NCBI GenBank assembly: GCA_946613195.1
Contig: CAMOFE010000001.1
Span: forward strand, 8,151-72,150
Length of the DNA: 64,000 nt
Direction of reading: 5' to 3'
Origin: an uncultured Alphaproteobacteria bacterium
GTDB lineage: Bacteria > Pseudomonadota > Alphaproteobacteria > Rs-D84
Shown: positions 15,615 to 40,463 of the stretch, piece after piece
How the letters are laid out: the number at the start of each line of letters is the position of its first letter
Position numbering within the stretch: the first letter of the stretch is position 1
Made by a program: the position numbers and the translations under genes
Notes under the pieces: generated by a model
What the model was told of the DNA's origin: nothing
What the model saw: only the letters and a program-made list of their open reading frames with translations
Databases searched by the model: none

Positions 15615-17162
15615 ATGAAGTTTTTGCGTTTGTTTTCTTTTGGTTTGTGTCTGGTTGCGAATAGTACTCTCGCATCTGATTTTGTACATATATCATCTGA
15701 TATTTCAGATAGTAATTATAATATGTCGGAATATACTATTATTGATACAGGTGTAAATATAAACAACGTGCATATAACACAATCGTTATATTTACAAAAC
15801 TATGGAAATATAAATGGCAACATTAATGTCAATAATCCATTGCGTTTGTATATGTATAATTCCGGAACGATATCAGGACAAATAATATTAAATGGTAATG
15901 CCCAGTTTTTCCAAATGATAACAAACCCAAGTGATATAACACAATTATCGGTATCTGGGGCGCATACAATAAATGTTATAGATGCAAATATGTTGTCTTT
16001 ATCTGCAATTGCCAGTATCAAGGGTGAAACAGACACAATCATACTGGAAAATTCAACATTGATGTTGGATTGTGATTTTGCGGATTTAGGCACAGTCAGG
16101 TTGGTTGGAAATGTGTTTCTGTATGCGCCAGATGAAAACGGGATTTATAATCAAAGTGTGCCGTTGTCTGTATCGGGCGATGGGCGTGCGTATGTTTATT
16201 CTGGAACCTCAAATCCATTAATGACGTATCAAACAAGCGTGAATGATGGTCAATTATATGTGCGTGCGTTGCGCGAAACAGATTATGTTAAAATCTTGCA
16301 TAATAAAACAGGCGAATTCTTGAACAGGGTGCGCGAATCAAACCCAGATGATAAATTGTTGCGTGCACTTGATTCTGCGACCAGTATGGCAGAACTAAAC
16401 GATATAATGTCGCGCAGTGTTCGTATAAATCCGAAATTGATGATGCGGCCCATTCGCACATTTGATGATATGCTGGTGAATGAATTTGCTGCGCGTTCCG
16501 ATATGCCTGATGGGGCGGTGCGCGCAATGTATGTTATATCAGATGATTTCAGTATTTATTCTGGAAATTTCAATATAGGATTGCACACATCCCCAAATTT
16601 TTATGTTTCTGCATACGGCGCGCTTGGTGTGCTGGATTGGTCTGATGATATAAATGATTTTGGTGCAGTTATGTATGGTGGTGGTATTCGTGCAAATTAT
16701 AATATCAGTTATACAGATATTGTTCGCGCAACATTTGGTGCAACATATGCAGATTTTGATTCAGATTTTGTGTTTGATGGCGAATCGGCAAAATCAGCAA
16801 AATCTGGTACAGATATTTATGGTGCGATGGATTTTGAGCATCGTTTTTATTTTCAGAATAAATTCTTTGTTGCACCAATTATTGGTGTGGCATCACATCG
16901 CAGTGAAATTATCGGAATGTCAGAAACAGATTCCATATTGCGTGGTGGAATAAATGCAGGCTATGGATTTTTGACATATGGTTTGGGATACGGATATGGA
17001 TTTCGTGCGTATATGGACAGCAATCGCACATTAAATGCAGAAGCAAAGATGTCTATTTGGTCTGCCATGGATGCCGCGGGTGGCGATTTAACAATTGGCG
17101 TTGTGCGTGCAGATGATTATACGGCATATAAATTATCAGTTGGCGCGCATTTTATGTTCTAG
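15615..17162 (+). CDS. Autotransporter-like outer-membrane protein (Asn-rich passenger + C-terminal beta-barrel)
   Basis: Signal peptide; Asn/Ile-rich N-terminal half with a beta-helix-like periodicity; C-terminal ~250 aa of alternating aromatic strands ending ..HFMF. Confidence 0.5.
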   Translation: MKFLRLFSFGLCLVANSTLASDFVHISSDISDSNYNMSEYTIIDTGVNINNVHITQSLYLQNYGNINGNINVNNPLRLYMYNSGTISGQIILNGNAQFFQMITNPSDITQLSVSGAHTINVIDANMLSLSAIASIKGETDTIILENSTLMLDCDFADLGTVRLVGNVFLYAPDENGIYNQSVPLSVSGDGRAYVYSGTSNPLMTYQTSVNDGQLYVRALRETDYVKILHNKTGEFLNRVRESNPDDKLLRALDSATSMAELNDIMSRSVRINPKLMMRPIRTFDDMLVNEFAARSDMPDGAVRAMYVISDDFSIYSGNFNIGLHTSPNFYVSAYGALGVLDWSDDINDFGAVMYGGGIRANYNISYTDIVRATFGATYADFDSDFVFDGESAKSAKSGTDIYGAMDFEHRFYFQNKFFVAPIIGVASHRSEIIGMSETDSILRGGINAGYGFLTYGLGYGYGFRAYMDSNRTLNAEAKMSIWSAMDAAGGDLTIGVVRADDYTAYKLSVGAHFMF

Positions 17163-18451
17163 GCAAATTCCCCGCGCAGGGATGCTTTATTTGCATTGGT
17201 AATTTTTATTTTTGCCATTTGCGGTGCGGTATTTGGGTCAATGTTTACAATACATTGTTGCATATATGGCGTGCGGTATATGGTGTGTTTGCCGGTTTTA
17301 TCTGCGCCTTCGCATAAGCATTCCAGTGTTTTACCAACACACGATACATTAAATTCGCGTTGAATTTCAGACAGCATCGCATCCAATTTATACAGACGTT
17401 CCTTTTTTATGTTTTCAGGCACCTGGTCTGGCATAATTGCAGCGGCGGTGTGTGGACGTGGTGAATACTTGAATGTAAAAGAATTGATATATTTAATTCG
17501 TTGTGCGATATCCATTGTTTGCTGAAAATCATCATCCGATTCGCCTGGGAACCCAACAATAAAGTCAGATGATATTTGTATGTCTGGTCGCGCCACGCGC
17601 AGTTTGTTCACAATATCAATATATGAATCCAGTGAATATGGACGATTCATACGTTTCAGAACATCTGGCGAACCACTTTGTATCGGCATATTCAAGAACG
17701 GTAATAATTTTGGTTCAATGGCAAACATTTCAATTAAATCATCGGTCATCTCGGTTGGATAACTGGATGTGAAACGAATGCGTTTTATTTTGGGCAGGGT
17801 GGCGGCTGCACGAATTAAATCCGACAGCCGATAATTTTCATATTTATATCCATTTACATTTTGCCCCAGAAAACAAATTTCTATCGCGCCAGTTTGGGCG
17901 GCATGTTTTGTGTCGCGTACAACATCCGCATATGGACGCGATATTTCACGACCACGCGTAAATGGGACAATACAATATGTACAGACGTGATTACAACCTT
18001 CTTGGATTGGAATATATGCAACCGCCGGCGAAGAATCCATTTGTGGCATTTCGTCAAATTTTTCCAGGCCACCTAGGTCAATGTTTAATAATGGCGAATC
18101 GGGATTATCTAAAATTTGTGGTAATTTATGATAACTTTGCGGCCCCAACACAAAGTTTAATTCAGGTACACGCCGAAATGCGCCAGACCCAACTTCACGT
18201 GCAACGCAACCAACAATTCCCAACAATGCAGATGGTTTTTTGGCAAGTCTGATGCGCCCCAGTGCAGAAAAAACTTTATCCGTCGCCTTTTCGCGTACAG
18301 AACAAGTGTTTAATATGATTATGTCCGCATCACTCAGTTCAGATGTTTCAGTCATCCCGCGTGCGCGCAACATGGCAGCAATACGCATGCCATCATATAC
18401 ATTCATCTGGCAACCAAAAGTGTGAATAAAGAATTTCTGCATATGGTGCAA
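17159..18451 (-). CDS. miaB: tRNA-2-methylthio-N6-dimethylallyladenosine synthase MiaB
   Basis: UPF0004 N-terminal domain (FIHTFGCQMNVYD), radical-SAM CxxxCxxC (CNHVCTYC), TRAM C-terminus. 430 aa. Confidence 0.9.
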   Translation of the reverse strand: MHHMQKFFIHTFGCQMNVYDGMRIAAMLRARGMTETSELSDADIIILNTCSVREKATDKVFSALGRIRLAKKPSALLGIVGCVAREVGSGAFRRVPELNFVLGPQSYHKLPQILDNPDSPLLNIDLGGLEKFDEMPQMDSSPAVAYIPIQEGCNHVCTYCIVPFTRGREISRPYADVVRDTKHAAQTGAIEICFLGQNVNGYKYENYRLSDLIRAAATLPKIKRIRFTSSYPTEMTDDLIEMFAIEPKLLPFLNMPIQSGSPDVLKRMNRPYSLDSYIDIVNKLRVARPDIQISSDFIVGFPGESDDDFQQTMDIAQRIKYINSFTFKYSPRPHTAAAIMPDQVPENIKKERLYKLDAMLSEIQREFNVSCVGKTLECLCEGADKTGKHTIYRTPYMQQCIVNIDPNTAPQMAKIKITNANKASLRGEFA

Positions 18452-18452
18452 T

Positions 18453-18689
18453 TTATTTCTGTTTTGCCGACATCAATAATGCCGCGGTTGCTGCGCGTTC
18501 ACGATTTTTTGCACGATCTGATACGTACACTGTGCGTGTATGCTTTACATTTTTGCCATGCACATTTGATGTGTATTTTAATTTTTGTGTTGATATTTTA
18601 TGTGGCGCATCAAAAGACAATAATTGTACATTTTTCAATGAATATTTGCTGCCTGTGATAATATCATAATCTAATTGTATTATTTGCAT
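18453..18689 (-). CDS. Small basic protein, unknown function (translationally coupled to miaB)
   Basis: 78 aa, pI very basic, 1-nt gap to the miaB start, in-operon position between gatB and miaB. Confidence 0.35.
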   Translation of the reverse strand: MQIIQLDYDIITGSKYSLKNVQLLSFDAPHKISTQKLKYTSNVHGKNVKHTRTVYVSDRAKNRERAATAALLMSAKQK

Positions 18690-18701: not shown

Positions 18702-18920
18702 TTATTTATGCATTGTTCTGTTAAATGATTTTTGTTTATTCTGAATAACTGTGCGTTTGGCATTATATGCATCACGGTATTTTTCATGTGTCGCATCTGG
18801 TTTAATATCTGTACGCAACGCAGATTTATAACCCATTTCCATACGCATTTTTTGTATTTTTTTAATTTGTTGATTTATAAATTTTTCTATAAATTTTGCA
18901 ATTGTTAACATTTTTTTCAT
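18702..18920 (-). CDS. Small Lys-rich protein, unknown function
   Basis: 72 aa. Its start overlaps the gatB stop (ATGA-type coupling). Lys-rich. Confidence 0.35.
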   Translation of the reverse strand: MKKMLTIAKFIEKFINQQIKKIQKMRMEMGYKSALRTDIKPDATHEKYRDAYNAKRTVIQNKQKSFNRTMHK

Positions 18921-20437
18921 CCTAATTTTTTCTTTAATATTTCATTTACAACCGCCGGGTTTGCCTGACCCGCCGTTGCCTTCATCACATTCCCAACAAA
19001 GAAGCCCAGCAAGCCAACTTTGCCCCCGCGATATTGTTCTACTTGTGCTGGATTTGCAGCAATAACCGCATCCACCGCTGATTCGATTGCGGATGTATCG
19101 GTGATTTGTTCCATACCGAATTTTTTCGCAATTTCATGTGGTGTGCCGGTTTCGCCGTCCAACATTTTAATAAAGATTTCTTTGGCTTGTTTACCGTTGA
19201 TTTCAGATGCTGCAATCATATCAACCAATTCTGCTAAATCAGATGGTGTTATTATGCGCATACCGTCAACTGTGCCAGACTTTTGATTTTCTATATCATA
19301 GTTTTCTGGGTGTGCAAACAATTCAGAAATCATCCAGTTTGCAATCGGTTTGGCACGTATCGGTTTATCACCAACCGCCGCATCATACCAATGTGAAACA
19401 TCTGTTGTTTCTGTCAGGCGCGTTGCGTCATATTCCGACAGACCATATTGCCCCATATACCGCGCACGTGTCGCCGCCGGCAATTCTGGTAATGTCTTGC
19501 GAATGCGTTCAATCATATCATCAGTTATAACCAGTGGTAATAAGTCTGGGTCTGGGAAATAGCGATAGTCCAACGCATCTTCTTTACTGCGCATAACGCT
19601 GGTGGTGCCATCATCTGCGTGGAAACGCATAGTATCCTGGGAAACTTCGCCACCATTTTCATATATTTCAATTTGACGGCGTGCCTCATACTCAATGGCG
19701 GTTTTAATAAACTTAAACGACACCATATTTTTGGTTTCTGTACGTGTGCGGAATGTTTTTTCACCAACGCGTCTTACCGAAACATTTACATCGGCACGCA
19801 TAGAACCTTCTTCCATATTTGCGCGTGATACGCCCAGGGCGCGCGCGATTTCGCGAATTTGTCGCAGGTATCTTTCGGCTTCATCTGGGGACGAAATGTA
19901 CGAATTATTTTCTGGATTTTTTGTGTCCAGGAATGTAACGATTTCCAACAATGCAACACCTGTACGATTATAATCGGCAAAAGATTTTGTTGGATGTACA
20001 TCGTGTTTTAATTTTCCTGCATCTTGTTCCAGGTGCGCACGTTCAATTAAAATCTTTTTTGGATTGCCATCATCGCCGATAATTTCAATATGGCCGCGAC
20101 CAACAATTGGTGCGACTTCGGGTGGTTGTGAAATCTGATATCCCTGGGGCAGGTCAGGATAGAAATATTGTTTACGGGCAAAAATGCTGCGTTTTGATAT
20201 TTCTGCATTTATCCCCAGACCAAATTTAATTGCCTGTTCAACGCAATATTTATTTAATACAGGCAACATGCCAGGCATTGCCACATCAACCATTGAAACC
20301 TGGGTATTGGGGGCAACGGTCGGATTATAGTCCGCAGATGCACCACTGAATAACTTGGAATTAGACAGCACTTCTATATGTGTTTCCAACCCAATTACCA
20401 ATTCCCAATCGCCTGTTTTGCCGTGTATAGTGAACAT
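18917..20437 (-). CDS. gatB: Asp/Glu-tRNA(Asn/Gln) amidotransferase subunit B
   Basis: Full-length GatB (506 aa) with the conserved N-terminus (WE.VIGLE.H..L) and C-terminal YqeY-like tail. Confidence 0.95.
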   Translation of the reverse strand: MFTIHGKTGDWELVIGLETHIEVLSNSKLFSGASADYNPTVAPNTQVSMVDVAMPGMLPVLNKYCVEQAIKFGLGINAEISKRSIFARKQYFYPDLPQGYQISQPPEVAPIVGRGHIEIIGDDGNPKKILIERAHLEQDAGKLKHDVHPTKSFADYNRTGVALLEIVTFLDTKNPENNSYISSPDEAERYLRQIREIARALGVSRANMEEGSMRADVNVSVRRVGEKTFRTRTETKNMVSFKFIKTAIEYEARRQIEIYENGGEVSQDTMRFHADDGTTSVMRSKEDALDYRYFPDPDLLPLVITDDMIERIRKTLPELPAATRARYMGQYGLSEYDATRLTETTDVSHWYDAAVGDKPIRAKPIANWMISELFAHPENYDIENQKSGTVDGMRIITPSDLAELVDMIAASEINGKQAKEIFIKMLDGETGTPHEIAKKFGMEQITDTSAIESAVDAVIAANPAQVEQYRGGKVGLLGFFVGNVMKATAGQANPAVVNEILKKKLG

Positions 20438-20489: not shown

Positions 20490-20565
20490 GGCTAGGTAGC
20501 TCAGTTGGTAGAGCAAGGGACTGAAAATCCCTGTGTCAGCGGTTCGATTCCGTTCCTAGCCACCA
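20490..20565 (+). tRNA. tRNA-Phe (anticodon GAA)
   Basis: Cloverleaf: acceptor GGCTAGG/CCTAGCC, D-arm AGCTCAGTTGGTAGAGC, anticodon loop CTGAAAA, T-arm GGTTCGATTCC, CCA end. Confidence 0.9.
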
Positions 20566-20577
20566 TTTTTTTTACCT

Positions 20578-20763
20578 TTATCTTATTCTTGCTATTGAAT
20601 CATTGATTGCAGATTGTTTCATTGCTTGTTCATATTTGGTTTTGTCTTGGTTTAATCGCATTTGCGAACGTTTGCATTCATTAATCGCAATTCCGCATAA
20701 TGCAGATAATAAAACAATATATAAACATCCATCCAGTCTAAAAGTAATCTTTTTTTCTTCCAT
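20578..20763 (-). CDS. Possible small single-TM membrane protein downstream of gatA
   Basis: 61 aa; its start lies 4 nt after the gatA stop and it has one hydrophobic helix. Could be spurious. Confidence 0.25.
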   Translation of the reverse strand: MEEKKITFRLDGCLYIVLLSALCGIAINECKRSQMRLNQDKTKYEQAMKQSAINDSIARIR

Positions 20764-20766
20764 TTT

Positions 20767-22233
20767 TTATTCACCCATAATGATTGTTGGACGATTATCA
20801 ATATTTGCAAATTGTTCAATATGGCGTGCCATACGCATCATGTCCATATCATGAAACATTGGTGCAACAACCTGAACCCCCAACGGCAGACCATTTTCTG
20901 CCAATCCTGCGGGTACAGATACCGCCGGGATGCCCGCCAGATTCATTGCCACAGTAAATAAATCCAATGCATAGTATTCCAATGGTGTTAAATCTGAATC
21001 CAATGGTAATGCGGTGTTTGCCCCCGATGGACATATGATAAAATCGCAATTTTGGAATGCAGAATTAAATGCGTTTGCAATTAAACGACGCACACGTGCG
21101 GCCTGCATAAAATATACATCGTATGATTCACTGGACAACACTGCTGTACCGATAATCAATCGGCGTTGTACTTCATCACCAAAACCGGCGGCGCGCGTCT
21201 TTTTGTATGTATCAACCAAATCAGAACCTTCTACACGCAGACCATAACGCATACCGTCATATCGTGCCAGGTTTGATGAAGCCTCGGCTGGGGCGATGAT
21301 ATAATACGCCGCCAATGCATCCAATATGTTTGGAATTGAAACCTCTACTATTTCGGCACCGTTTGATTTCAAGTCGGCGATTCGCGCATCCATCACGCGT
21401 TTCATATCTGGCGAAACATCAACATTTGCAAATTCCTTTACAACACCAACGCGAATTTTTTTGCCAGTATTCAGTATCGGTTTTAATTCGCCATCAAAAT
21501 CAAAAGAATGATAAGACGATGTTGAATCTTTATCATCGTGTCCTGTCATAACAGATAACATTAACGCCGCATCATTTACTGTGCGTGCAATGGGCCCTGG
21601 GGTATCTAAACTGGATGCAAACGCAACACAACCCCAACGCGAACACAAACCGTATGTTGGCTTTACCCCAACCAACCCCGTAATAGATGCCGGAAAACGA
21701 ATTGATCCCCCGGTGTCTGTGCCGGTTGCGCCCATGGCCAGACCCGATGCCACCGCCGATGTAGAACCACCCGATGATCCGCCAGCCGTTAATTTACGTG
21801 TTCTTTGCCATGGGTTAATTGGTGCACCGAAATATGATGTTTTACTGAAAGTGCCCATCGCAAATTCGTCCAGGTTTGTTTTACCCAACAATACAGAACC
21901 CGAATCGATAAACTTTTGTGAAACAGTTGATTCATATTCCGGGACAAAATTTTCCAGCATTTTTGATGCCGCAGTTGTGCGAATACCGCGGGTCGCAAAC
22001 AAATCTTTCATTCCAATTGGTATCCCATCCAATGCGCGCGCAGTGCCGTCTGCATAGTGTTTGTCGGCATTTGCCGCATCGCTTAGTGCGCGTTCGGGTG
22101 TGGTTGTAATATAGCAATTTAATTCCGTACCATATTTTTCAATACGCGCAATATGTGCACGCGCCAATTCGGTCGCAGATATTTCGCGCGATTTTAATTT
22201 CTTTAATGCCTCTGTTATGGTCAGGTTTATCAT
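20767..22233 (-). CDS. gatA: Glutamyl-tRNA(Gln) amidotransferase subunit A
   Basis: Amidase signature (GGSSGGS), 488 aa. Confidence 0.95.
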   Translation of the reverse strand: MINLTITEALKKLKSREISATELARAHIARIEKYGTELNCYITTTPERALSDAANADKHYADGTARALDGIPIGMKDLFATRGIRTTAASKMLENFVPEYESTVSQKFIDSGSVLLGKTNLDEFAMGTFSKTSYFGAPINPWQRTRKLTAGGSSGGSTSAVASGLAMGATGTDTGGSIRFPASITGLVGVKPTYGLCSRWGCVAFASSLDTPGPIARTVNDAALMLSVMTGHDDKDSTSSYHSFDFDGELKPILNTGKKIRVGVVKEFANVDVSPDMKRVMDARIADLKSNGAEIVEVSIPNILDALAAYYIIAPAEASSNLARYDGMRYGLRVEGSDLVDTYKKTRAAGFGDEVQRRLIIGTAVLSSESYDVYFMQAARVRRLIANAFNSAFQNCDFIICPSGANTALPLDSDLTPLEYYALDLFTVAMNLAGIPAVSVPAGLAENGLPLGVQVVAPMFHDMDMMRMARHIEQFANIDNRPTIIMGE

Positions 22234-22235
22234 AT

Positions 22236-22703
22236 TTATTTACCTTTGGTGTTTTTCATAATTAAATTTGTCAAAAATTGTAATTGGGCATTGCAATTGA
22301 TTTTCTGTTTTTCCAGTTCCTGTATTGCTTGGGTATGTTCTGCAATTTTCCGTTTGTGTTCGGCGATTTTTAATTGAATATCGCGGGATTGTTGTTGCAG
22401 CGTTTGACTGGCTGTCTGCATTTCAGATACAGTTTTATATTTCATATTTTCATTAAAATACATGGCCAGTTTCATATTTATTTCACCCAAGGTGATTTTA
22501 CCCATATTGCGTATATGGTGTAAATTATCTTGATGTTTTAACAATTCACCAATGGTGCGTATATCCCCATAACCTTTTAAGGTATTAGATGCACGTGTTG
22601 ATAAATTCAACACATCAATAGAAACATCAAATTCATCGTTTTTCATATTATTCTCCATCCATAACTTTTGGTACAGCAAAGTATCCACGTGATACGCCGG
22701 CAT
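22236..22703 (-). CDS. RNA polymerase alpha-subunit C-terminal-domain (alpha-CTD)-like protein with C-terminal coiled coil
   Basis: Segment DVLNLSTRASNTLKGYGDIRTIGELL resembles the alpha-CTD helix-hairpin-helix, followed by a heptad-rich tail (IAEHKRKIAEHTQAIQELEKQK). The likely start is an internal Met just after the gatC stop. Lies between gatC and gatA. Confidence 0.45.
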   Translation of the reverse strand: MPAYHVDTLLYQKLWMENNMKNDEFDVSIDVLNLSTRASNTLKGYGDIRTIGELLKHQDNLHHIRNMGKITLGEINMKLAMYFNENMKYKTVSEMQTASQTLQQQSRDIQLKIAEHKRKIAEHTQAIQELEKQKINCNAQLQFLTNLIMKNTKGK

Positions 22704-22944
22704 TATCAGGTGCGTTTTTTAACACACTGTCGCGAATACCGCCGTCTGTTACCACATCATCGCGCCATGGTAATTCATGTTCTGCGGGGTTTAACATTGC
22801 ATCAACCCCGGTTGTATCAATTCTTTGTAATTTATCCAGCCATTCAATCACAGAATCAATATTCATTTTTTCCAGTTTGTCATCCGTGATATCAATTCGT
22901 ATCAGGTCTGCAAATTTATGTAATTGTTGCTTGCTAAATGCCAT
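22648..22944 (-). CDS. gatC: Glutamyl-tRNA(Gln) amidotransferase subunit C
   Basis: 98 aa with the typical GatC helices (..LARIDI.D..LE....L..IL.W...L). Confidence 0.85.
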   Translation of the reverse strand: MAFSKQQLHKFADLIRIDITDDKLEKMNIDSVIEWLDKLQRIDTTGVDAMLNPAEHELPWRDDVVTDGGIRDSVLKNAPDNAGVSRGYFAVPKVMDGE

Positions 22945-24510: not shown

Positions 24511-25479
24511 TTATTCTGTGATTGGTTGGATGGTGTCTGTTATATCAATAACATCCATATTTGGTTGTGTTGGTTGTACTGTTGTTGCCGTTCCCAACAT
24601 ATATGCCAATATCATAATATTTATAATAACCGCGATTGTCGCGAATGTTTTGTTTATTGTTTTTTGTAAATGTTCTTTCCCAACAATTCCACGCCAGATA
24701 AAGAACAGAACAACAGGCGTTAATACAACGGTCAAATTCCACAGCACACCGCCACCCCACAGACACAATAATTCTGTGATACACAGTAATGCCAATGCAA
24801 TATATGAATTGCGTGGGTGGGCAACAATCCAATCTGTTAATGTGGTAAATGTGCGACTGCGAATTTCAACACGTGAATCTAATTTTTTTGCATCGTTCAT
24901 AATATAGCCCGGCACCCACATTACGCAAAATGGTAATGTTAATAATGCTTTGATTCGCGACATACCCAGACCAATCCCACGCAAGTAACACGCATACATA
25001 ATTACAACGCCCAGTCCCATTATATATGTTGCAATTAATGCAATCATCAACACGCCAATTAAACCAAAGATTAATTTTGTGTTTGATACAGCATAAGTAT
25101 TCCATAACACAGGTGCAACAAGCATAAATATTGCTGCAAATAATGCCATTGCAAAACACGCGGCAATCGCGGAACTGGTTAAAACTGCGACAGAACTGCG
25201 TCTGTCAAACAAATCTGTTCGTAACCATTTAACCAGTTTATATATTCCAAACAGATTTATTATTGTCGCCAATATCGCGACAGTTTTGCCGGACATTGAC
25301 CAATCTAATGCAGTTGCCAATGCGCCATAAATCAAACTGATAAATATAGATAAACACAAAACTAATGTGGCAAATTTAATTGGTGTCCGCCAAATCCATG
25401 ATGCCAAAGTGCGTGTGGCAACATTTGATTTTTTTTGTGTTGCTTGTGATGTTTTTTTTGCTGTTTTTTTCTTTAACAT
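24511..25479 (-). CDS. Polytopic inner-membrane protein, unknown function
   Basis: 322 aa, Lys-rich N-terminus then ~8 hydrophobic helices. No motif I recognise. Confidence 0.5.
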   Translation of the reverse strand: MLKKKTAKKTSQATQKKSNVATRTLASWIWRTPIKFATLVLCLSIFISLIYGALATALDWSMSGKTVAILATIINLFGIYKLVKWLRTDLFDRRSSVAVLTSSAIAACFAMALFAAIFMLVAPVLWNTYAVSNTKLIFGLIGVLMIALIATYIMGLGVVIMYACYLRGIGLGMSRIKALLTLPFCVMWVPGYIMNDAKKLDSRVEIRSRTFTTLTDWIVAHPRNSYIALALLCITELLCLWGGGVLWNLTVVLTPVVLFFIWRGIVGKEHLQKTINKTFATIAVIINIMILAYMLGTATTVQPTQPNMDVIDITDTIQPITE

Positions 25480-27559: not shown

Positions 27560-28180
27560 TTAATTTTCTTGGGTTGCCAATGCTTTTGCCTGGGCAAACA
27601 GGGTCAGTGATTGTCCCAACAATCCATTTGTAAATGTTTGCGCCAAAATACCGTCTGGTTCTGTATTGCCCAAGTGTTGCAACAATCTGTCTGCGTGCGA
27701 CATATAATTATCCAGGTTGCGTGCAACCTCGGTATCTAATTTAATTGCGCGTCGCAACTTTTCCAATGCAAACGGATTTTTTGCATATTCATCCATAATG
27801 CCGCCAATCGCCCGCCATAACGGGTGTTCAGATGTCTGGCGGGGCATTATATCAATCGCCGCCATAATCGGAATCAAACATTGTAACAAGTCTTGATAAA
27901 TAATTTCTGCGTGTTCTGCAACCGCATTGGTGGCATATTTGCTTTTTAATACAGATTGCATTTTTACAATCAAATTATACTGATATTCCAGAGTTTTGTT
28001 TATTTGCTTGTTTTGTACAGATATACGATAAATTGACCATGCAATTATGCCACATATAACGGCAATAATGCCCAATATTATAAAAACAAAAGTGTCTTGC
28101 ATTTCTTTTCCCTGGTTTTGGACATACCCAAGTATATCATGTTTTTCCGATTCGCGCGATTTTATCTTTTGGTAAATCAC
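27560..28180 (-). CDS. Membrane-anchored hypothetical protein
   Basis: One TM (FVFIILGIIAVICGIIAWSI) then a ~150-aa helical domain. Diverges from the secretin operon. Confidence 0.45.
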   Translation of the reverse strand: MIYQKIKSRESEKHDILGYVQNQGKEMQDTFVFIILGIIAVICGIIAWSIYRISVQNKQINKTLEYQYNLIVKMQSVLKSKYATNAVAEHAEIIYQDLLQCLIPIMAAIDIMPRQTSEHPLWRAIGGIMDEYAKNPFALEKLRRAIKLDTEVARNLDNYMSHADRLLQHLGNTEPDGILAQTFTNGLLGQSLTLFAQAKALATQEN

Positions 28181-28285: not shown

Positions 28286-29233
28286 ATGTTTCGTAAGATA
28301 TTGATAATAGCGATGTTTGCAACTGCGGCGGGTTATTGTTTCGCCGAAGATAATGTTCACCAAGTTGTAACGAGTGAGGTTTTTTATGACGAAGAATATC
28401 GTCGGATTGATGATAATGTGTATGAAGATATCGTTGAAGAAACCGAAGTGCCTGCGTGGCCATTAGTTGGTTCTGATGCAGACGTAGAAGTTACATGTGA
28501 TCGTGGTGCGTGCAGTAATGTGCGTACACCTGTGGTCGCGCAAACGCCTGTGCCACGACGCGCAGATAATATTCGTATTGTTTCCAAAATTGGTGATGAT
28601 ATGGTTGTTGAAAATAATATAAATATGAGCGGTGCCGGTAACCAATGGTCGGGTGGTGCAGATATGGTGCATGGTATGCAAATCCCGGCGGGGTTTGATA
28701 ACGAATGTTATAATGGCGCAGAAATGCCGTTGTTGCATCGTGAAATTCTGGAAGATGACGGTGGCAGTGTATTGGCTGTATCACGTGGACCATACAATCG
28801 TTGTGGTGGATATGTAAACGATTACGATACATATGTTGCGAAAAGTAAATTAAGCGAAACAGAAAAATTGCGTTGGTTGGCGATGGATGATGCAACAACA
28901 GAATCAACAAAATCTGTTCGCGGTGATATTGTTGTTGATGTAACAACAGATGCGGATGCGGCCCCAGAATTACCAGACCAGGTGCGGTCTTGGGTTGTTG
29001 CAAATGGACAAACATTACGCGAAGTTTTGCAAAGTTGGTGTGATAAAGATGGTTGGGATTTAGTATGGGCAACATCGCGCGAATACCCGATAGAGGCCAG
29101 TGCGGTGTTCAAGGGACGTTTCGTTGATGTTGCATCTGCGCTGGTGCGGAACTTTGGTCGTGCAACACCAATCCCATATGCAAAATTTTACAAGGGAAAT
29201 CGTGTTTTAGTCGTATCCACCACCGAGGAGTAA
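28286..29233 (+). CDS. Secreted TcpQ-domain protein (type IVb pilus secretin partner, TcpQ/PilM-like)
   Basis: Signal peptide (..AAGYCFA|ED). C-terminal ~90 aa (..WVVANGQTLREVLQSWCDKDGWDLVWATSREYPIEASAVFKGRFVDVASALV..FYKGNRVLVV) matches the TcpQ family pattern. Located immediately upstream of a lipoprotein secretin, as tcpQ is to tcpC. Confidence 0.5.
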   Translation: MFRKILIIAMFATAAGYCFAEDNVHQVVTSEVFYDEEYRRIDDNVYEDIVEETEVPAWPLVGSDADVEVTCDRGACSNVRTPVVAQTPVPRRADNIRIVSKIGDDMVVENNINMSGAGNQWSGGADMVHGMQIPAGFDNECYNGAEMPLLHREILEDDGGSVLAVSRGPYNRCGGYVNDYDTYVAKSKLSETEKLRWLAMDDATTESTKSVRGDIVVDVTTDADAAPELPDQVRSWVVANGQTLREVLQSWCDKDGWDLVWATSREYPIEASAVFKGRFVDVASALVRNFGRATPIPYAKFYKGNRVLVVSTTEE

Positions 29234-29274
29234 TAATCCATTAACAGGATGACACATTTGGGAGAGCATAGGAA

Positions 29275-30903
29275 ATGAAAAAAGTATTAAAACTTTTTGT
29301 GTTATGTTTGGCTGTCGGCACGATGGTGGCAGGTTGTGCAAAAAAAGAATCTGCCAAGGTTGCGGCCGCAGTTGATCAAAACTTTATCAATGCGTATGAC
29401 GCGTTTGAGATGGCAAAAAATCCACGCGCCAAGGTCGCCAGTGGCGATACTGTTTCTATGTCCGAAGGTGTTTGGTTGGGTAATAAATCAACCGTGTTGG
29501 AACACAAAAATAATCTGCCATCCCAGTTTGAGACGGATACAGGTGTAACAATTTTGTTAAACGAACCTGTTACACTGCAAGTGTTTGCAAATAATATAAA
29601 TTCCATTACAGGTATCCAGGTAAAAATAGACAGCCAAATTAATTCTGAAAAATTAAAAAGGACAATGAATATTGCCTACACTGGGAAACTGTCGGATTTG
29701 TTGTCCCAGGTCGCAACAGATTTAGATTTGCTGTGGTACTATGACAAAAGTTCTATTGTGTTTTACGAAACAGAAACAAAAACATTTACATTATATGCGC
29801 TGGGGACAGATGTGTCGTATCAATCATCTGTTCAGACAGATGAAGGAACGCAGGTGTCTTTGGAATCAACATTGCGCGAATGGGAAGAGGTTGAAAAGAC
29901 AATCGCATCTATTATTGGTAATACTGATAACGCGGAATTTACCGTTTCGCGCAGTTTAGGAACAATAACAGTTACCGCGCCACCGTCTGTGCAGACGCGT
30001 GTTGGTGAATATATTGCGCGTCAAAACCGCAGATTGTCGCAACTGGTAACGATTGATGTAAAAGTATTACAGGTATCAATTACTAATAATTCGGCATTTG
30101 GCCTGAATTTGGCGGCGGCGATTAACGCGGCATCAGGATTGAATATCGTTGCAAATCCCAAGAATAATTTAGCCGCGACCGAGGCCAGTTCAATGAATAT
30201 TGCTGTATTATCTAATACATTGTCGGCAATGACAGGTGCAACGCATTTGGTTAATGGTGTTGAAACAGCCGGCGCATATACATCTGATGATATAAACAAT
30301 GGTTCGTTGTCTGGTGTTGCAGGTTCCAGTGCGCTGATAGAGGCATTGGCCAAGCAGGGTAAAGTGTCTTTAGTTACAAATGTTGGTGTTACAACGCGTA
30401 ATAATCGTGTTGCCCCGGTAAATAATACGCGTACCACAGGTTATATTAAACGATTTGAATCGCGTACATTTACATCTGTGGAATCATCAACTGTGGATCA
30501 AGATAACTTGGAAACAGGTTTTGCTATGCAGTTGTTGCCAAATGTGCTGGAAAACGGGAAAATATTGTTGCTGTTCAGAATGTCTGTGCGTGAATTAATC
30601 AAAATGTCCAGCCAAACGATTGGCGAGGTTACCTTGCAATTACCCGAAGTTGAAGAACGCAGTTTTATGCAAGAAGTTATTATGGAATCAGGTCAAATGT
30701 TGGTCGTGTCCGGGTTTGAGAAGCAAACAAATAACGATACGCGTTATGGTTTGGGCGATCCTGATTTTATGGCGTTATCTGGTTCGCGTGAATCTGCTGC
30801 GCAACGCGATGTTTTGGTTGTTATATTAACACCACAAGTTTTGGTCAGTCCAATGGATGCCGAACGTAGTATTCAGCAACATTGGGGTGCACCATTAAAT
30901 TAA
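29275..30903 (+). CDS. Lipoprotein secretin of the type IVb pilus class (TcpC/BfpB/PilN-like)
   Basis: Lipobox (MVAGC). C-terminal secretin domain (..GQMLVVSGFEKQTNNDTRYGLGDPDFMALSGSRESAAQRDVLVVILTPQVL). 542 aa, the size of T4b secretins. Confidence 0.7.
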   Translation: MKKVLKLFVLCLAVGTMVAGCAKKESAKVAAAVDQNFINAYDAFEMAKNPRAKVASGDTVSMSEGVWLGNKSTVLEHKNNLPSQFETDTGVTILLNEPVTLQVFANNINSITGIQVKIDSQINSEKLKRTMNIAYTGKLSDLLSQVATDLDLLWYYDKSSIVFYETETKTFTLYALGTDVSYQSSVQTDEGTQVSLESTLREWEEVEKTIASIIGNTDNAEFTVSRSLGTITVTAPPSVQTRVGEYIARQNRRLSQLVTIDVKVLQVSITNNSAFGLNLAAAINAASGLNIVANPKNNLAATEASSMNIAVLSNTLSAMTGATHLVNGVETAGAYTSDDINNGSLSGVAGSSALIEALAKQGKVSLVTNVGVTTRNNRVAPVNNTRTTGYIKRFESRTFTSVESSTVDQDNLETGFAMQLLPNVLENGKILLLFRMSVRELIKMSSQTIGEVTLQLPEVEERSFMQEVIMESGQMLVVSGFEKQTNNDTRYGLGDPDFMALSGSRESAAQRDVLVVILTPQVLVSPMDAERSIQQHWGAPLN

Positions 30904-30955: not shown

Positions 30956-31387
30956 ATGAAAAAAAGAGAGGGACCGCAAGCGCGGATATTAAGGGACTTA
31001 GAGATGCGTTTGTTAAAGTTATGTTTAGGATGTTCTGTGATTATTGCAACATTTAATTGTTGTATATTCAATGCGGATGCTGAAATTGCCAGTGTTGGTT
31101 ATGTTACCAGCAAGATATCAAATACTGTTTCAGATCAATCAACAAATGACCAGGCAGCCAGTGCGGCCGCAACATATACATTCAGTTCTAATGCCAATAA
31201 TTTAACATCTGGTACTGTTGCGCCTGCGCGTTTACCAGATGCAACCACATCCGCCAAAGGTGCGGTTATGATTGGCACAACGGCCAGCACGGTTGCTGTT
31301 GGAAATGATCAACGGTTTGATACGGTCGCAACAACTGCACCATCGGGCAGTCCAGATACAGGTCGTGCATTTATTTGGTTTCAATAA
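30956..31387 (+). CDS. Small secreted Ser/Thr/Ala-rich protein with phage-tail-fibre-like repeat
   Basis: Hydrophobic/Cys N-terminal segment (LLKLCLGCSVIIATFNCC), then ..NLTSGTVAPARLPDATTSAKGAVMIGTTASTVAVGNDQR.., which resembles the phage tail-fibre repeat (ATT..KG.V.LAT....AGTD..KAVTP..L). Confidence 0.4.
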   Translation: MKKREGPQARILRDLEMRLLKLCLGCSVIIATFNCCIFNADAEIASVGYVTSKISNTVSDQSTNDQAASAAATYTFSSNANNLTSGTVAPARLPDATTSAKGAVMIGTTASTVAVGNDQRFDTVATTAPSGSPDTGRAFIWFQ

Positions 31388-31413
31388 AAAATCCCGCAAA
31401 GTGGGATTTTTTA
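31386..31413. terminator. Bidirectional Rho-independent terminator
   Basis: AAAAAATCCCGCAAAGTGGGATTTTTTA between two convergent genes. Confidence 0.6.
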
Positions 31414-31899
31414 TTTTTGTTTAGTATTTATTTGATTTATAAATTTATTTCGTATTTGTATTTGATGATTCATATCTTGTCTGGATGCGTGATTCATTCG
31501 TTCCAGCGGATTAACAACGCACGCCATAACAATATTTGTTGGATACAGTTGTAATACAGGTTCGCCTGTTTCTTTGTCCAGATATTCAACAATTGTGCTG
31601 GCCAATTTTTCGCCCATAACAGGTTTCAGTGTATCAAATGCATTGACCATATTGTTTGCACCGGGATTTGGAAATTGTGTGGTGTGCAACCAATCAGAAG
31701 TATTTTGCACTGTTTCGCCGTTTAACACAATAACCGCCAAAGGCGTCATTTGACATAATTCCCATGCAGATAGATTTGCCATAACATCAGATATTTTTAC
31801 AATATATGTATTTTTTTTCTTGCGTGTTGGACCAAAAGTTTTATTTTTTTCGCTTTGTACTGGTGTTTTATTATTATCGCGTTTGCCGAAAAGTTTCAT
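31411..31899 (-). CDS. Hypothetical protein with Lys-rich N-terminus
   Basis: 162-aa ORF with good coding periodicity. No motif recognised. Confidence 0.45.
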   Translation of the reverse strand: MKLFGKRDNNKTPVQSEKNKTFGPTRKKKNTYIVKISDVMANLSAWELCQMTPLAVIVLNGETVQNTSDWLHTTQFPNPGANNMVNAFDTLKPVMGEKLASTIVEYLDKETGEPVLQLYPTNIVMACVVNPLERMNHASRQDMNHQIQIRNKFINQINTKQK

Positions 31900-33026: not shown

Positions 33027-33836
33027 ATGAAAAAAACAGTTATCTTTTTAATATCTGCTTTGCTTTTAATGCCGGCATTTGCGGCGCCTGGGGATTCTGC
33101 ACGGCGCAGTATGTCTGATCAAATGGTTGCCGCACCACGTGCAACGGCATCGGTGGGTCAGTTAAATGCGACATCGGCGGCCAAAAAGTCCAGTATCAAG
33201 GTTGAAACAGATATGATTGCGGCACCGGTTGCAGATGAACAAAATCGCCGTGATAAAGAAAAAGAAGCGTGCCAGGGTAATAATATCGGTATTGGAAATA
33301 CTTTTGTTTGGGCGTCGCGTTACAGTAATTCATCCAGTTATGCATCTATGGTAGAAGATGTCAACAACCCTGAAAATAACGTTTGTTTTGTCAAGGTTGA
33401 TATGAAATCCAGCGATTCGCGTATAAATTTATCTGATATCCCCAGTAAATATTTTGTTATGGGTAATACAATTAATTGTGGTTCTTGGGTTGACGAAGAC
33501 GCATTACAAAAACGTATCTTGGATGCCAAGAAAACAGGACGCGCGTTGGCAACCGTTGGCGGTGTTGTTGGTGGTGCGGGCTTGGGCGTTGGCGCAATGG
33601 AATTGTTTGGTAACAAATTAATTGGTGGCAAGGTTATGGGTCAAAAAGATGAAAAACTGACAGAAACCGAAGTGTTTGTATCCCAGATGTTGGTTCTGAA
33701 ACAAGAAAATCGCGCAGAATATGATAAAATAATTAAAGAGTTGGAAAGCATACAATCGGAATGCAAGAATAATAACATTAAAGAATGTGCTGAATTGGAT
33801 TATGCCGCTTTGCTGAAAACACAGGATAACCAATAA
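33027..33836 (+). CDS. Secreted hypothetical protein with Gly-zipper segment
   Basis: Signal peptide (..LLMPAFA). 269 aa. Gly-zipper GGVVGGAGLGVGAMELFG near the C-terminal third, then a charged helical tail with 2 Cys. Confidence 0.5.
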   Translation: MKKTVIFLISALLLMPAFAAPGDSARRSMSDQMVAAPRATASVGQLNATSAAKKSSIKVETDMIAAPVADEQNRRDKEKEACQGNNIGIGNTFVWASRYSNSSSYASMVEDVNNPENNVCFVKVDMKSSDSRINLSDIPSKYFVMGNTINCGSWVDEDALQKRILDAKKTGRALATVGGVVGGAGLGVGAMELFGNKLIGGKVMGQKDEKLTETEVFVSQMLVLKQENRAEYDKIIKELESIQSECKNNNIKECAELDYAALLKTQDNQ

Positions 33837-35195: not shown

Positions 35196-36539
35196 GTGCG
35201 GGTGGTTTTTACACTCTTGCGCGGGCAGGAAACTCTTTTAAGGAAGGAAAGGAGAAACGGCATGCAGGCAGCGGCAACAAAACAAATAATAAACTTGGAA
35301 AACATCCGGGGTGCGATTGCCGCCAAAATTGATTCTGCCGCGTTTACTTCTTGGATTGAACCACTGAAATTTAGTATTTGTGATGGCGTGCTGGTATTGG
35401 GTGCACAAAATCAATTCTCGGCTGATTATATAGCCAGTGTTTATAATGGTGTGTTATCTGCTGTTGCGGCTGAATTTGGTTTGACATTGTCAATATATGT
35501 TGCGTCTGTGCCTGTTGCGACAACAAAAATCGCGAACGACAACAACACACAAAATTATGCGCCGGCGACACCAGATGTTACGGCGCATATTGCATTTGAT
35601 GATTTTGTATCGTCTGATGAAAATGCATTTGTATTATCTGCGGCGCGCAGGGTCGCGACAGGCGCAGTATCTTTTTCACCACTGTTTATATATGGGCCGG
35701 CGGGTTGTGGTAAAACATTATTGGCAAATTGTATAAATTCATCTGCCACGGGTCGTGTTGTTATGATGTCTGGGGCACAATTTGTTGCAGAATTTACACG
35801 CAGTTTGGCGACACACACAATTTTCGCATTCAAGGATTTTTGTCGCAATTGTGATACATTTATTCTGGACGATATTCAGGTCTTGGCGGGCAAGCGCGCA
35901 ACAATGGACGAATTTATGCAACTGGTTATTGATTTACGCGAAGCGGGCAAAAACGTTGTGTTAACATCTGCGCAATCCCCAAACAATTTATCTGGGTTTG
36001 ACAGACGCGCACAATCATTATTGGCATCGGGCTTGGTTGCGGATATGGTGGCACCTGATAAAAACGCGCGTCGTACAATTTTGATTCGTTCTGGCGTTGC
36101 AAATGATGTTGCAGAATATATTGCCGCGCATACAACTGCAAATGGTCATACAATTGCCGGCGTTGCAAATAAAATCAAAACATACAGTGAATTAATGGGT
36201 CAATCGGTTGATATTGATACTGCATCGCGCCTGTTGGCAGATACACTGGAAAAATCCAAGACACCGATTGCGATGGTACGCGATATGTGTGAAAAACTGG
36301 GCGTGTCGTATGATTCTGTGTGCGGGGCAGGGCGTGGTCGTCGTTTGGTCTTGGCACGCCAGATAATGATGGTTGTATTAAAAGATGTTACAAATTTATC
36401 ATTGGCGGAAATTGGGAATATGGTTGGTGGTCGCGATCATGCAACGGTTTTGTATGCGATTCGCCAGATAGAAAAATTAAAACAGTCAGACTTGGTTTTG
36501 TCTGCGCAAATTAATCAGTTTATTTCAGATTGCAGATAG
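35196..36539 (+). CDS. dnaA: Chromosomal replication initiator DnaA (divergent)
   Basis: AAA+ P-loop (GPAGCGKTLL), sensor motifs, and C-terminal domain IV with HTH (..GGRDHATVLYAIRQIEKL..). The likely true start is the internal MQAAATK, preceded by a GGAAAGGAGA RBS. Confidence 0.8.
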   Translation: MRVVFTLLRGQETLLRKERRNGMQAAATKQIINLENIRGAIAAKIDSAAFTSWIEPLKFSICDGVLVLGAQNQFSADYIASVYNGVLSAVAAEFGLTLSIYVASVPVATTKIANDNNTQNYAPATPDVTAHIAFDDFVSSDENAFVLSAARRVATGAVSFSPLFIYGPAGCGKTLLANCINSSATGRVVMMSGAQFVAEFTRSLATHTIFAFKDFCRNCDTFILDDIQVLAGKRATMDEFMQLVIDLREAGKNVVLTSAQSPNNLSGFDRRAQSLLASGLVADMVAPDKNARRTILIRSGVANDVAEYIAAHTTANGHTIAGVANKIKTYSELMGQSVDIDTASRLLADTLEKSKTPIAMVRDMCEKLGVSYDSVCGAGRGRRLVLARQIMMVVLKDVTNLSLAEIGNMVGGRDHATVLYAIRQIEKLKQSDLVLSAQINQFISDCR

Positions 36540-37792: not shown

Positions 37793-39715
37793 TTGAACAG
37801 TGTCTTGTTTTATGATAAAATTGCATTCAGAGAGAATATGAAATCAATTACGCGTTTTTTTGCGTTTGTTTTATGCGCGGTGCCACTGTGCGCGGCGGCT
37901 GCGCCTGTTGCAACCACCGCCGGCAGTAATTTAACCGCATATAATCCAACCACAGGTGCAACAAATAATAATATGTGGAATACACTGATGAATGGACGCG
38001 GTGCGGCGGGCGGAAATAACGCGGCACCGGCAGATTTTGGAAACTGTAATGCACTGATAATTCGTTGCGCATCACCAAAGTGTGCTAATGGTGGATGCAC
38101 AGATATGGATGTCGCATCATCTATTGTGCGCGGATGTGTTAATTCCAATGAAAATTGTAAAAAATATGGCGATGATTTGGTTGAATACATATCTGCACAG
38201 TTGGTCGCATCTTCTAATGCAAAAATAAATGCTGCCAATGTTGCGGCGCAAAATGCCACTGCTGCGGCTGTGGCACAACAAAATGCCCAGCAAATGGCAG
38301 AAATGCAACAACAGATGCAACAGATGCAGGCAGAAATGGCGCAACAAAATGCGGCAACTGTTCAGGCAATGCAGGCGGCACTGGATGAACAGAAACAATT
38401 AACCGCAGATGCAATCGCAAATGCAAACGCAACACAACAAAGTGCGCCGTCTTATACTGCGCCGGTGCCAACAAATTCAGAATATGATAATGGGTTAACC
38501 AACGCCCAGATTATTGCGGCGCAAAATGGTGTGTCTGCGGATGTTTTGGCGCGTGAACAAATTGTTGGTGAAATAATGTCAAAACTGGAAAATGCAGAAA
38601 CCGCATTAAAGACATTAAAGACCACAATGCAAGATGCATTTGATTATGCGGGTTGTGATTCATTTGGTAATAATTGCAGTGGGCCAAAACGCGTGTCTGC
38701 GTTCAAGTCGCGTGCGATAAAATTCTTTGATCCATATAATACGGTGTTGGACGAATTATATGATGCGTTAATCACTGCCCAGGCCGCCGGTGTTGATATA
38801 ACAGATATCTATATGATGCTGGAAGGGTCATGTAATGTCTGGGGACAATATTTGTGTTCACAGACAGAACTTGGTGCGTATGCCGATGGGAGTAGTTTGC
38901 CAAAAAGTTGTGATAAGAATACTGGTAAAAGTATAAAATCTGGCAGTACCAAAGGGGGGCGTGATTGTGTAATTGGGCAACCAATTCCCCCCGAAGACAG
39001 TCCATTGTGCACACTGCAAAAAACATACGCCGATGGCGAAAGTGTGCGTCGCGCATGGTTGTACCCCGAAGAAGGTGATGATGAAACCCAGGGTGGTGCA
39101 ATACGCGTTGGGTGTGCGTCGTCTGCGCTGGATAATTCTAAATTCTTTCGCAGTCGCAAAAAACAGGCACAAATTGATATTGAAATACTGGAACGTATAA
39201 TTGAACAAGATGCATCTGCGTCCAGTGGTTTTACCATGTTTGGTGCGCGCCGGGACGATGGCGCACGTCGTGAACAAACATACGGTGCATGTGCGATTGG
39301 CGAAACAATGTATGCAGATTTGCAGAAAATAACCGCAACAAAAAAATTGCCAGACAAAATATGTATGAAACAACGCGATGCGATTGAAAAAGTCCGCAAT
39401 GATGCCCCATTGGCACTTGCAACAGGTGGCATGTCCAAGACAATCTTGAAATATCACGAACAATGTGAAAAAGAAGATAGAGAGAGTGTTACGGATTATT
39501 GGGAATGTTTGTGTCCAAAAATAGGTAATGGTTACACAAAATCTAGTGAAGGTGAATATTGTTCTTGCGGAACGGATTCTAATAAATATTGGGGCAAGGA
39601 TAATTATTACGAATGTTTGACCGATGACCAAATATGCACACGTAAACAGTTTTGTACAGGTACACAAAAATCACAATGGAATCAGACTGAAAAAACATGT
39701 GGTGATTGCAAATAA
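37793..39715 (+). CDS. Large secreted Cys-rich protein with Ala/Gln-rich coiled-coil segment, unknown function
   Basis: Signal peptide at the internal MKSITRFFAFVLCAVPLCAAAAP. ~30 Cys in CxxC/CxnC patterns in the N- and C-terminal regions. Central region QQNAQQMAEMQQQMQQMQAEMAQQNAATVQAMQAAL. 640 aa. Confidence 0.5.
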   Translation: MNSVLFYDKIAFRENMKSITRFFAFVLCAVPLCAAAAPVATTAGSNLTAYNPTTGATNNNMWNTLMNGRGAAGGNNAAPADFGNCNALIIRCASPKCANGGCTDMDVASSIVRGCVNSNENCKKYGDDLVEYISAQLVASSNAKINAANVAAQNATAAAVAQQNAQQMAEMQQQMQQMQAEMAQQNAATVQAMQAALDEQKQLTADAIANANATQQSAPSYTAPVPTNSEYDNGLTNAQIIAAQNGVSADVLAREQIVGEIMSKLENAETALKTLKTTMQDAFDYAGCDSFGNNCSGPKRVSAFKSRAIKFFDPYNTVLDELYDALITAQAAGVDITDIYMMLEGSCNVWGQYLCSQTELGAYADGSSLPKSCDKNTGKSIKSGSTKGGRDCVIGQPIPPEDSPLCTLQKTYADGESVRRAWLYPEEGDDETQGGAIRVGCASSALDNSKFFRSRKKQAQIDIEILERIIEQDASASSGFTMFGARRDDGARREQTYGACAIGETMYADLQKITATKKLPDKICMKQRDAIEKVRNDAPLALATGGMSKTILKYHEQCEKEDRESVTDYWECLCPKIGNGYTKSSEGEYCSCGTDSNKYWGKDNYYECLTDDQICTRKQFCTGTQKSQWNQTEKTCGDCK

Positions 39716-40437: not shown

Positions 40438-40463
40438 AATCCGCGCAATGCGCGGATTTTTTA
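40436..40463. terminator. Bidirectional Rho-independent terminator
   Basis: AAAATCCGCGCAATGCGCGGATTTTTTAT between convergent genes. Confidence 0.65.

Follow-up and report, generated by a model that had tools for sequence, protein, structure and literature searches.

An alpha-CTD-type small protein in a variable slot between gatC and gatA of an uncultured alphaproteobacterium

Why should a gene whose product resembles part of RNA polymerase lie between two genes of the GatCAB amidotransferase? The question is posed by a 64,000-nucleotide (nt) stretch of contig CAMOFE010000001.1, from assembly GCA_946613195.1 of an uncultured Alphaproteobacteria bacterium; this stretch, taken at its full length, is referred to below as the window. 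The gene in question, here called X, occupies 22236..22646 on the minus strand and encodes 136 amino acids (aa), including a domain of the type found at the C terminus of the polymerase alpha subunit (alpha-CTD). It is recognised from its open reading frame (ORF), a match to Pfam PF03118, a near-identical metagenome gene call and its ratio of nonsynonymous to synonymous substitution rates (dN/dS). On the same strand it is flanked upstream by gatC (22648..22944; Pfam GatC, E=9.4e-13) and downstream by gatA (20767..22233; Pfam Amidase, E=7e-136). An initial annotation had treated X as a single insertion; it is instead an occupant of a strain-variable slot that can hold any of several cargo genes. 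The slot inside gatC-gatA is the main new result, and is more interesting than X alone: the junction is a fast-turnover site of at least four interchangeable orphan families, of which X is a minority occupant.

The placement of X recurs wherever the synteny of gatCAB was followed into relatives. Every member of the X family that was looked up sits between gatC and gatA, in the order sufBC...AI-2E...ruvX/gatC...gatA...gatB...miaB, and is usually joined there by 1-3 further orphan ORFs. In order to avoid the ascertainment bias of a search made with X, the slot was surveyed in 80 metagenomic loci fetched with the GatA of the window (73-85% identity), 72 of which show both gatC and gatA and form the denominator used here. 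The two genes are contiguous in 23 of these 72 loci, with a gap of 4-63 nt, and in the remaining 49 they are separated by 325-2505 nt filled with 1-4 tightly packed ORFs on the same strand. On clustering, these ORFs fall into a few orphan families, designated 'a', 's', 'b' and X, plus fusions.

The commonest cargo is the 'a' family (124-176 aa), with 51 ORFs in 38 loci, including L002:10379-11178, L016:2502-3286, L028:1731-3003 and 35 others. Its members have four conserved Cys residues, a C-terminal C-x7-C-x3-I-x2-G-K-C-x-D-x-F...LFxxKY motif and a basic tail, and often occur as tandem paralogues. An AlphaFold2 (AF2) model of an 'a' protein, with a predicted local distance difference test score (pLDDT) of 71, has no significant match in the PDB; the best is beta-grasp-like, at a template modelling (TM) score of ~0.25. 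The 's' family (78-126 aa) is found in 16 loci, the 'b' family (195-269 aa) in 13, and the X family in nine, the window counted. None of 'a', 's' and 'b' has a Pfam or PADLOC match, and all three evolve under purifying selection, with dN/dS values of 0.09-0.30. Cargo of the alpha-CTD type is present in seven of the 72 survey loci, five of which carry canonical X; in three of those five (L019, L088 and L044) X is alone in the slot, as it is in the window. Indeed, each of the families can occur alone. They are also found joined to one another: the 296-aa product of L012:4132-5022 combines a divergent alpha-CTD-like domain (E=3e-4 against the Pfam alpha-CTD, under threshold) with an 'a' domain and a second segment resembling a helix-hairpin-helix (HhH), and cluster 5 consists of 'a'-'s' fusions of 224-230 aa (e.g. 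L011:5303-5977). A 169-aa protein at L055:5474-5983 has two alpha-CTD-like domains and a coiled coil. Judged from the sequences, the fusions may, in the manner of Rosetta-stone proteins, hint at a common context of action for the families.

Hidden Markov models (HMMs) of 'a', 's', 'b' and X, run on all six-frame ORFs of the window and the loci (804 kb of locus-centred sampling), matched in the gatC-gatA gap only, with the exception of two 's' copies just upstream of gatC. Additionally, three 'a' proteins taken from the global collection all map to the gatC/gatA junction. The occupants change quickly. Loci whose GatA proteins are 96.5-98% identical differ in cargo (none as against 's' with 2×alpha-CTD; s-a5 as against 'b'), and X is scattered across the GatA clustering. 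Spacers between cassettes measure 1-20 nt and the junctions show only a stop codon, a ribosome-binding site (RBS) and a start codon, the last cassette typically ending in ...TAGGAAG..., which gives both its stop codon and the RBS of gatA. There are no mobility genes at the slot and no repeats at its junctions. The arrangement resembles defence or accessory hotspots and integron arrays in having conserved flanks around variable, tandem, same-strand, small and fast-turnover cargo. Unlike these, the slot is embedded in an operon that is essential and translationally coupled; it lacks an integrase, mobility genes and known defence domains, and holds cargo families that are unique to it in the sampled sequence. 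Spacers of 1-20 nt leave no room for attC-like sites, and integron cassettes were rejected on this ground and for want of an integrase; the flanking genes are ruvX, gatC and gatA.

Within the window, X is packed as closely as the cassettes of its relatives. An ORF was initially placed here at 22236-22703; its presence between gatC and gatA is borne out, while translation most likely begins with the ATG at 22646 (MKNDEF...), 1 nt past the TAA of gatC. The start of the longest ORF, at 22703, would give 155 aa with the first 19 codons inside gatC, and was dropped for three reasons. The starts of all homologues agree with 22646; the gene call of a 99%-identical metagenome copy (P0001/L001) has the identical start and the same 136 aa; and a Shine-Dalgarno-like GGAG (22653..22656, minus strand) lies 7-10 nt 5' of this ATG within the final gatC codons, as read from the sequence GGATGGAGAATAATATG. 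At the other end, the stop codon of X (22236-22238) is followed 2 nt further by the ATG of gatA at 22233. These spacers of 1-2 nt are compatible with the translational coupling that had been supposed, and X would be expressed from the gatC-gatA message across them. Promoter and terminator consensus scans inside the operon returned background-level scores only. An Rfam scan of the window identified two tRNAs only, with no RNA element in the gatC-gatA gap, and there is no rRNA in the window. Protein matches of the DipM/ActS type point to Alphaproteobacteria.

X is a genuine gene under purifying selection. Between the orthologues of L002 and L006, which share 86% of their residues, dN/dS is 0.079 at a dS of ~1.0, indistinguishable from the values for gatA (0.077) and gatC (0.070) in the same pair, and a second pair (L044-L045) gives 0.16. 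Deeper branches show faster change, with a dN of 0.55-0.64 for X as compared with ~0.15 for GatA and GatC; the GatC of the window is itself 72-78% identical to that of its relatives. The notion that X is a remnant without function, or intergenic spacer wrongly annotated as a gene, could draw on its G+C content of 0.324, the lowest of 50 window genes examined (mean 0.414, standard deviation 0.030), and on the paucity of its family, which amounts to only ~9 protein clusters among 5.8 billion proteins. It is scarcely tenable in view of the dN/dS of 0.079 at a dS near 1, a Pfam match at E=5.2e-12, a confident AF2 model and an architecture kept across lineages at 35-45% identity; a spurious ORF was rejected on the first three of these. 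The initial annotation would have been undermined by a lack of profile support together with loss or decay of the ORF in relatives; instead the profile matches, and the ORF is present there and under purifying selection. Third-position G+C (GC3) in X is 0.307 and within the genomic range, so the low overall G+C is due to an amino-acid composition rich in K, N, I and Q. A recent horizontal acquisition was also judged by composition, and the low G+C combined with ordinary GC3 was not decisive.

By profile and by predicted fold, X belongs to the alpha-CTD domain family, as the initial annotation had proposed in describing an alpha-CTD-like HhH; the motif quoted for it, NLSTRASNTLKGYGDIRTIGELL, is found in X. 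The Pfam model RNA_pol_A_CTD (PF03118) matches residues 3-61 over profile positions 8-66 of 67, at E=5.2e-12 and with 45.7 bits where the gathering score is 23.8. When X is compared with the NCBIfam RpoA equivalog models, only their last ~60 positions align, and the scores fall far under the cutoffs. A phmmer search of PDB sequences matched this domain exclusively to RNA polymerase (RNAP) alpha chains, and the tail weakly to Rad50 coiled coils. The AF2 model, built from a nine-sequence family alignment, has a mean pLDDT of 84.8 and predicts an N-terminal domain of five to six helices (residues 3-6, 10-13, 17-27, 32-37, 39-44 and 50-67). In a Foldseek search against the PDB the only high-probability matches of the model are alpha-CTDs, among them those of E. 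coli, M. tuberculosis and S. coelicolor, onto which the predicted model superposes over 54-57 residues with a root-mean-square deviation of 1.2-1.4 Å and a TM(target) of 0.75-0.85. Taking Pfam, AF2 and Foldseek together, the HhH domain extends over residues 3-63 (22458..22640, minus strand). Residues 73-134 (22245..22430, minus strand) are predicted to form one uninterrupted helix of 62 residues at pLDDT 90-96, with hydrophobic residues at 12 of 21 heptad a/d positions (57%). Of the C-terminal coiled coil initially described, the long, heptad-patterned helix is thus recovered in the model, and the coiled coil itself is plausible.

Despite this kinship, X has no Pfam match to the alpha N-terminal domain (alpha-NTD) in its 136 residues, and so cannot be an RNAP subunit. 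It shares with the alpha-CTD of the E. coli type its profile, fold and equivalents of R265 and G296, and, if its helix dimerises, it would present two domain copies in the way that the RNAP alpha dimer does. Whereas RpoA uses its alpha-NTD for assembly and dimerises through it, dimerisation of X would come from the C-terminal helix. K298 and D259/E261 of RpoA are not kept in X, and the gene belongs to the gat operon rather than to the rpsD-rpoA-rplQ context of rpoA. Neither does X show a GatC or Gta3 match in profile searches. Membership of GatCAB, as a subunit or a GatC-like accessory, was rejected for this lack of homology together with the 23 of 72 loci in which gatC and gatA are contiguous and the mere seven with alpha-CTD cargo.

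Stand-alone alpha-CTD-like proteins had been thought rare, which proves not to be so. A word-indexed search of 5.8 billion proteins with X returned its 99%-identical copy only, whereas phmmer, run with the single sequence on 1.84 billion representatives, found 191 representative clusters at E<=1e-3, mostly tandem-repeat proteins other than RpoA. The whole architecture of X is present in just two of these (P0054 and P0093), the others matching over the ~60-residue domain, and the RpoA N-terminal domain is absent from all of the best 150 matches. Tandem alpha-CTD repeats, 2-10 of them, are present in 135 of the 164 fetched proteins with a match to the domain HMM, and the RpoA NTD in two; a layout of one domain plus coiled coil is found also in P0143, P0148 and P0112. 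Small phage proteins of 98-149 aa annotated as alpha-CTD appear in the viral structure library BFVD. These non-RpoA repeat and phage proteins are, like X, free modules, often multivalent and in some cases of the same layout, with 30-50% identity to X over the ~60-residue domain only. The X family proper differs from them in comprising only ~9 clusters, all at the gatC/gatA junction; a profile search recovered these nine, at 119-136 aa, and one GTDB species representative, a metagenome-assembled genome, carries a member. A phage or plasmid origin of X was considered and rejected, as tblastn found no homologue in 50,697 phage or 72,556 plasmid records, IMG/VR returned two domain-level matches only, and PHROG matches were limited to the coiled coil. 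In the literature search, neither stand-alone alpha-CTD proteins nor a gatC-gatA insertion proved to be the subject of any paper, and the non-RpoA relatives appear uncharacterised.

Which surfaces of the domain are conserved bears on what X might bind. The family was aligned to residues 249-329 of E. coli alpha and compared with the E. coli 265 determinant, here R265, N268, C269, G296, K298 and S299. In alpha-CTD, R265 inserts into the DNA minor groove. Its equivalent is invariant in nine of nine core members and kept in nearly all of 14 canonical X sequences, being lost only in both alpha-CTD-like segments of the L012 fusion; the G296 equivalent is likewise invariant in the nine, and the 14 canonical sequences retain it. 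N or H stands at position 268, T, C, S or A at 269, I or T at 298 and S or T at 299, and the determinant is thus conserved in part. The '261 determinant', a contact for sigma-70 region 4, is not kept, as position 259 is V, D, N or K and position 261 is N or G, with E in one member. The strongest constraint in the family falls on the structural core and the DNA-contact equivalents R265 and G296, while known protein-contact patches are not invariant. A Cys in the helix was considered as a redox or metal site and set aside; although invariant in the first nine sequences, it is absent from the divergent L019, L088, L044 and L045.

We tentatively favour, as possible but short of probable, the interpretation that X is a multivalent nucleic-acid binder of the alpha-CTD type that is co-expressed with GatCA. 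Its helix of ~60 residues would probably oligomerise as a coiled coil and so present at least two alpha-CTD modules, in the manner of the alpha dimer of RNAP. Such an oligomer may bind nucleic acid in a largely sequence-non-specific way, the likeliest target being the minor groove of A/T-rich DNA approached through the R265-equivalent arginine, and X might thereby act as a small nucleoid-associated protein or as a regulator that competes for UP elements, an effect akin to the modulation of RNAP or UP-element recognition that was, reasonably, conjectured at first. This interpretation is preferred because the strongest constraint falls on the structural core and DNA contacts, and because multivalency, through tandem repeats or coiled coils, recurs among non-RpoA alpha-CTD proteins. 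Several observations count against it. In place of K298, which contacts the UP element in E. coli alpha, the family has I or T; some divergent members lack the equivalent of K297 too; and the isoelectric point of the domain ranges from 4.4 to 9.5. The confinement of both X and the unrelated 'a', 's' and 'b' proteins to the gatC/gatA junction is not predicted by a generic role in DNA binding or regulation, and hints at a link with GatCA itself. Moreover, the alpha-CTD is also a platform for protein-protein interactions, and a role other than DNA binding would fit the fold equally well.

The same confinement invites the alternative, in our view rather unlikely, that X and the other slot families are accessory factors of the GatCAB amidotransferase or transamidosome, which would meet the nascent complex through co-translation; X might then bind tRNA through its HhH, or shield or modulate GatCA. 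That four families occur nowhere but at gatC-gatA, in the 804 kb (bar the two 's' copies) and in all global look-ups, speaks for such factors, and spacers of 1-20 nt with the TAGGAAG stop-plus-RBS keep the operon coupled around them. The fusions of an alpha-CTD with 'a' in L012 and of 'a' with 's' in cluster 5 point to a common setting in which the families work, and the neighbouring gatCAB, tRNA-Phe and miaB are all tRNA-related. Against this must be set the 23 of 72 loci that are free of cargo and the seven with alpha-CTD cargo, from which it follows that X is not needed for GatCAB function, as well as the exchange of cargo between loci with 96.5-98% identical GatA and a dN on deep branches some four times that of GatA and GatC. 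Sampling centred on the locus also leaves room for copies elsewhere in the genomes, and binding of tRNA or GatCAB by an alpha-CTD domain has no precedent known to us. A more specific form of the idea, in which the slot is a dedicated accessory site whose cargo targets the transamidosome or the tRNAs it works on, tuning or protecting Asn/Gln-tRNA synthesis for example, must be considered doubtful.

The confinement to the junction likewise leaves room for regarding the slot as a conflict or contingency locus in which the cargo encodes single-gene defence, anti-defence or immunity-like factors. Under this explanation, which we hold to be fairly improbable, X could for instance serve as a decoy alpha-CTD and titrate away some phage or toxin protein that hijacks the alpha-CTD of the host, and strains would swap cargo by recombination within the conserved gatC and gatA flanks. 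Presence, absence and replacement of families in near-identical backgrounds, with X patchy over the GatA clustering, agree with it, as do the occurrence of the families alone, as autonomous modules, their status as lineage-specific orphans throughout, and the existence of small phage proteins with the alpha-CTD fold. Regulators are known to dock on the alpha-CTD, and the Spx-alpha-CTD structure 1z3e, one of the PDB entries matched by X, is an example. Yet PADLOC-DB 2.0 returned only PbeC for X, at E=0.0028 and over coiled-coil residues, and a known defence system was rejected accordingly; eight other orphan ORFs (a- and b-family members, orphans of relatives and a 61-aa ORF of the window) had no match there. 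The phage, plasmid, IMG/VR and PHROG searches described above speak against the explanation as well, as do the lack of enzymatic domains, mobile-element genes and junction repeats, and average dN/dS values of 0.08-0.3 show no sequence-level sign of an arms race. Finally, X might bind RNAP or its regulators instead of DNA, as a decoy or adaptor that competes for activators, sigma region 4 or NusA. It does possess the alpha-CTD fold, whose surface determinants mediate many protein contacts, but the '261 determinant' is not kept (D259 variable, E261 replaced by N or G) and the invariant residues are the structural core plus R265 and G296, not protein-contact patches. Since the family does not conserve the known protein-contact patch, a pure decoy for RNAP or a regulator is the less likely, and we consider this explanation an unlikely one.

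The alpha-CTD is among the best-studied transcription modules, and for the free proteins of this type, here forming hundreds of clusters, no described function could be found. X offers a tractable entry point to them, being compact, under purifying selection and possessed of the key DNA-contact arginine. It represents a known domain in a new small-protein family, within a genomic setting that is unusual and apparently undescribed. If X simply binds A/T-rich DNA, it would be a modest addition to the nucleoid-associated proteins; were the slot proteins to act on GatCAB or tRNA, this would be new biology, and were the slot in fact a dedicated accessory site, an essential enzyme of translation would prove to be modulated in a strain-specific way that was previously unknown, and the alpha-CTD fold to have been put to a new use. 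An essential, translationally coupled gene pair that hosts fast-exchanging orphan genes in two-thirds of lineages, with those genes found nowhere else in the sampled sequence other than the two 's' copies upstream of gatC, bears on the birth and fixation of new genes inside operons and raises the question of strain-specific GatCAB partners.

The remainder of the gat neighbourhood is also punctuated by orphan ORFs. On the minus strand, a 61-aa ORF with no family match (20578..20763) begins 3 nt past the gatA stop, and gatB (18917..20437; Pfam GatB_N, E=2e-101, and GatB_Yqey, E=2e-42) is separated from miaB (17159..18451) by two tightly packed ORFs of 72 aa (18702..18920) and 78 aa (18453..18689). 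In relatives, the gatA/tRNA-Phe and gatB/miaB junctions hold other, non-homologous ORFs (132 and 58 aa; 257 aa; 72 and 56 aa; or a protein of 426-450 aa with a weak R2K ATP-grasp match, E=0.025) or, after gatA, none. A tRNA-Phe(GAA) gene identified by ARAGORN and Rfam (20490..20565, plus strand, opposite to the gat genes) has the 61-aa ORF on one side and gatB on the other, and separates gatCA from gatB; it is placed likewise in L004, and the gatA-gatB gaps of most relatives, at ~140-250 nt, are big enough for it.

Upstream of gatC are the divergent ruvX, an AI-2E transporter gene and sufCB. Genes for dnaA (35196-36539, plus strand) and gyrB (40461-42440, minus strand) lie 13-20 kb from X, and the cumulative GC skew climbs across most of the window; because of these two features, the gat locus is probably in the origin-proximal part of the chromosome. 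Many further ORFs of 143-640 aa have no Pfam or NCBIfam match, namely 15615-17162, 30956-31387, 33027-33836, 37793-40437, 44019-44759 and 46955-47581 on the plus strand and 24511-25479, 27560-28180 and 31411-31899 on the minus strand. Three were compared with orphans of relatives, where 27560-28180 is 59-65% identical and 15615-17162 and 24511-25479 are related weakly, at 24-26%; the lineage seems rich in clade-specific proteins. Adjoining the suf genes, a TcpQ-domain protein and a secretin (28286-30903, plus strand) are kept in L002, L004 and L006.

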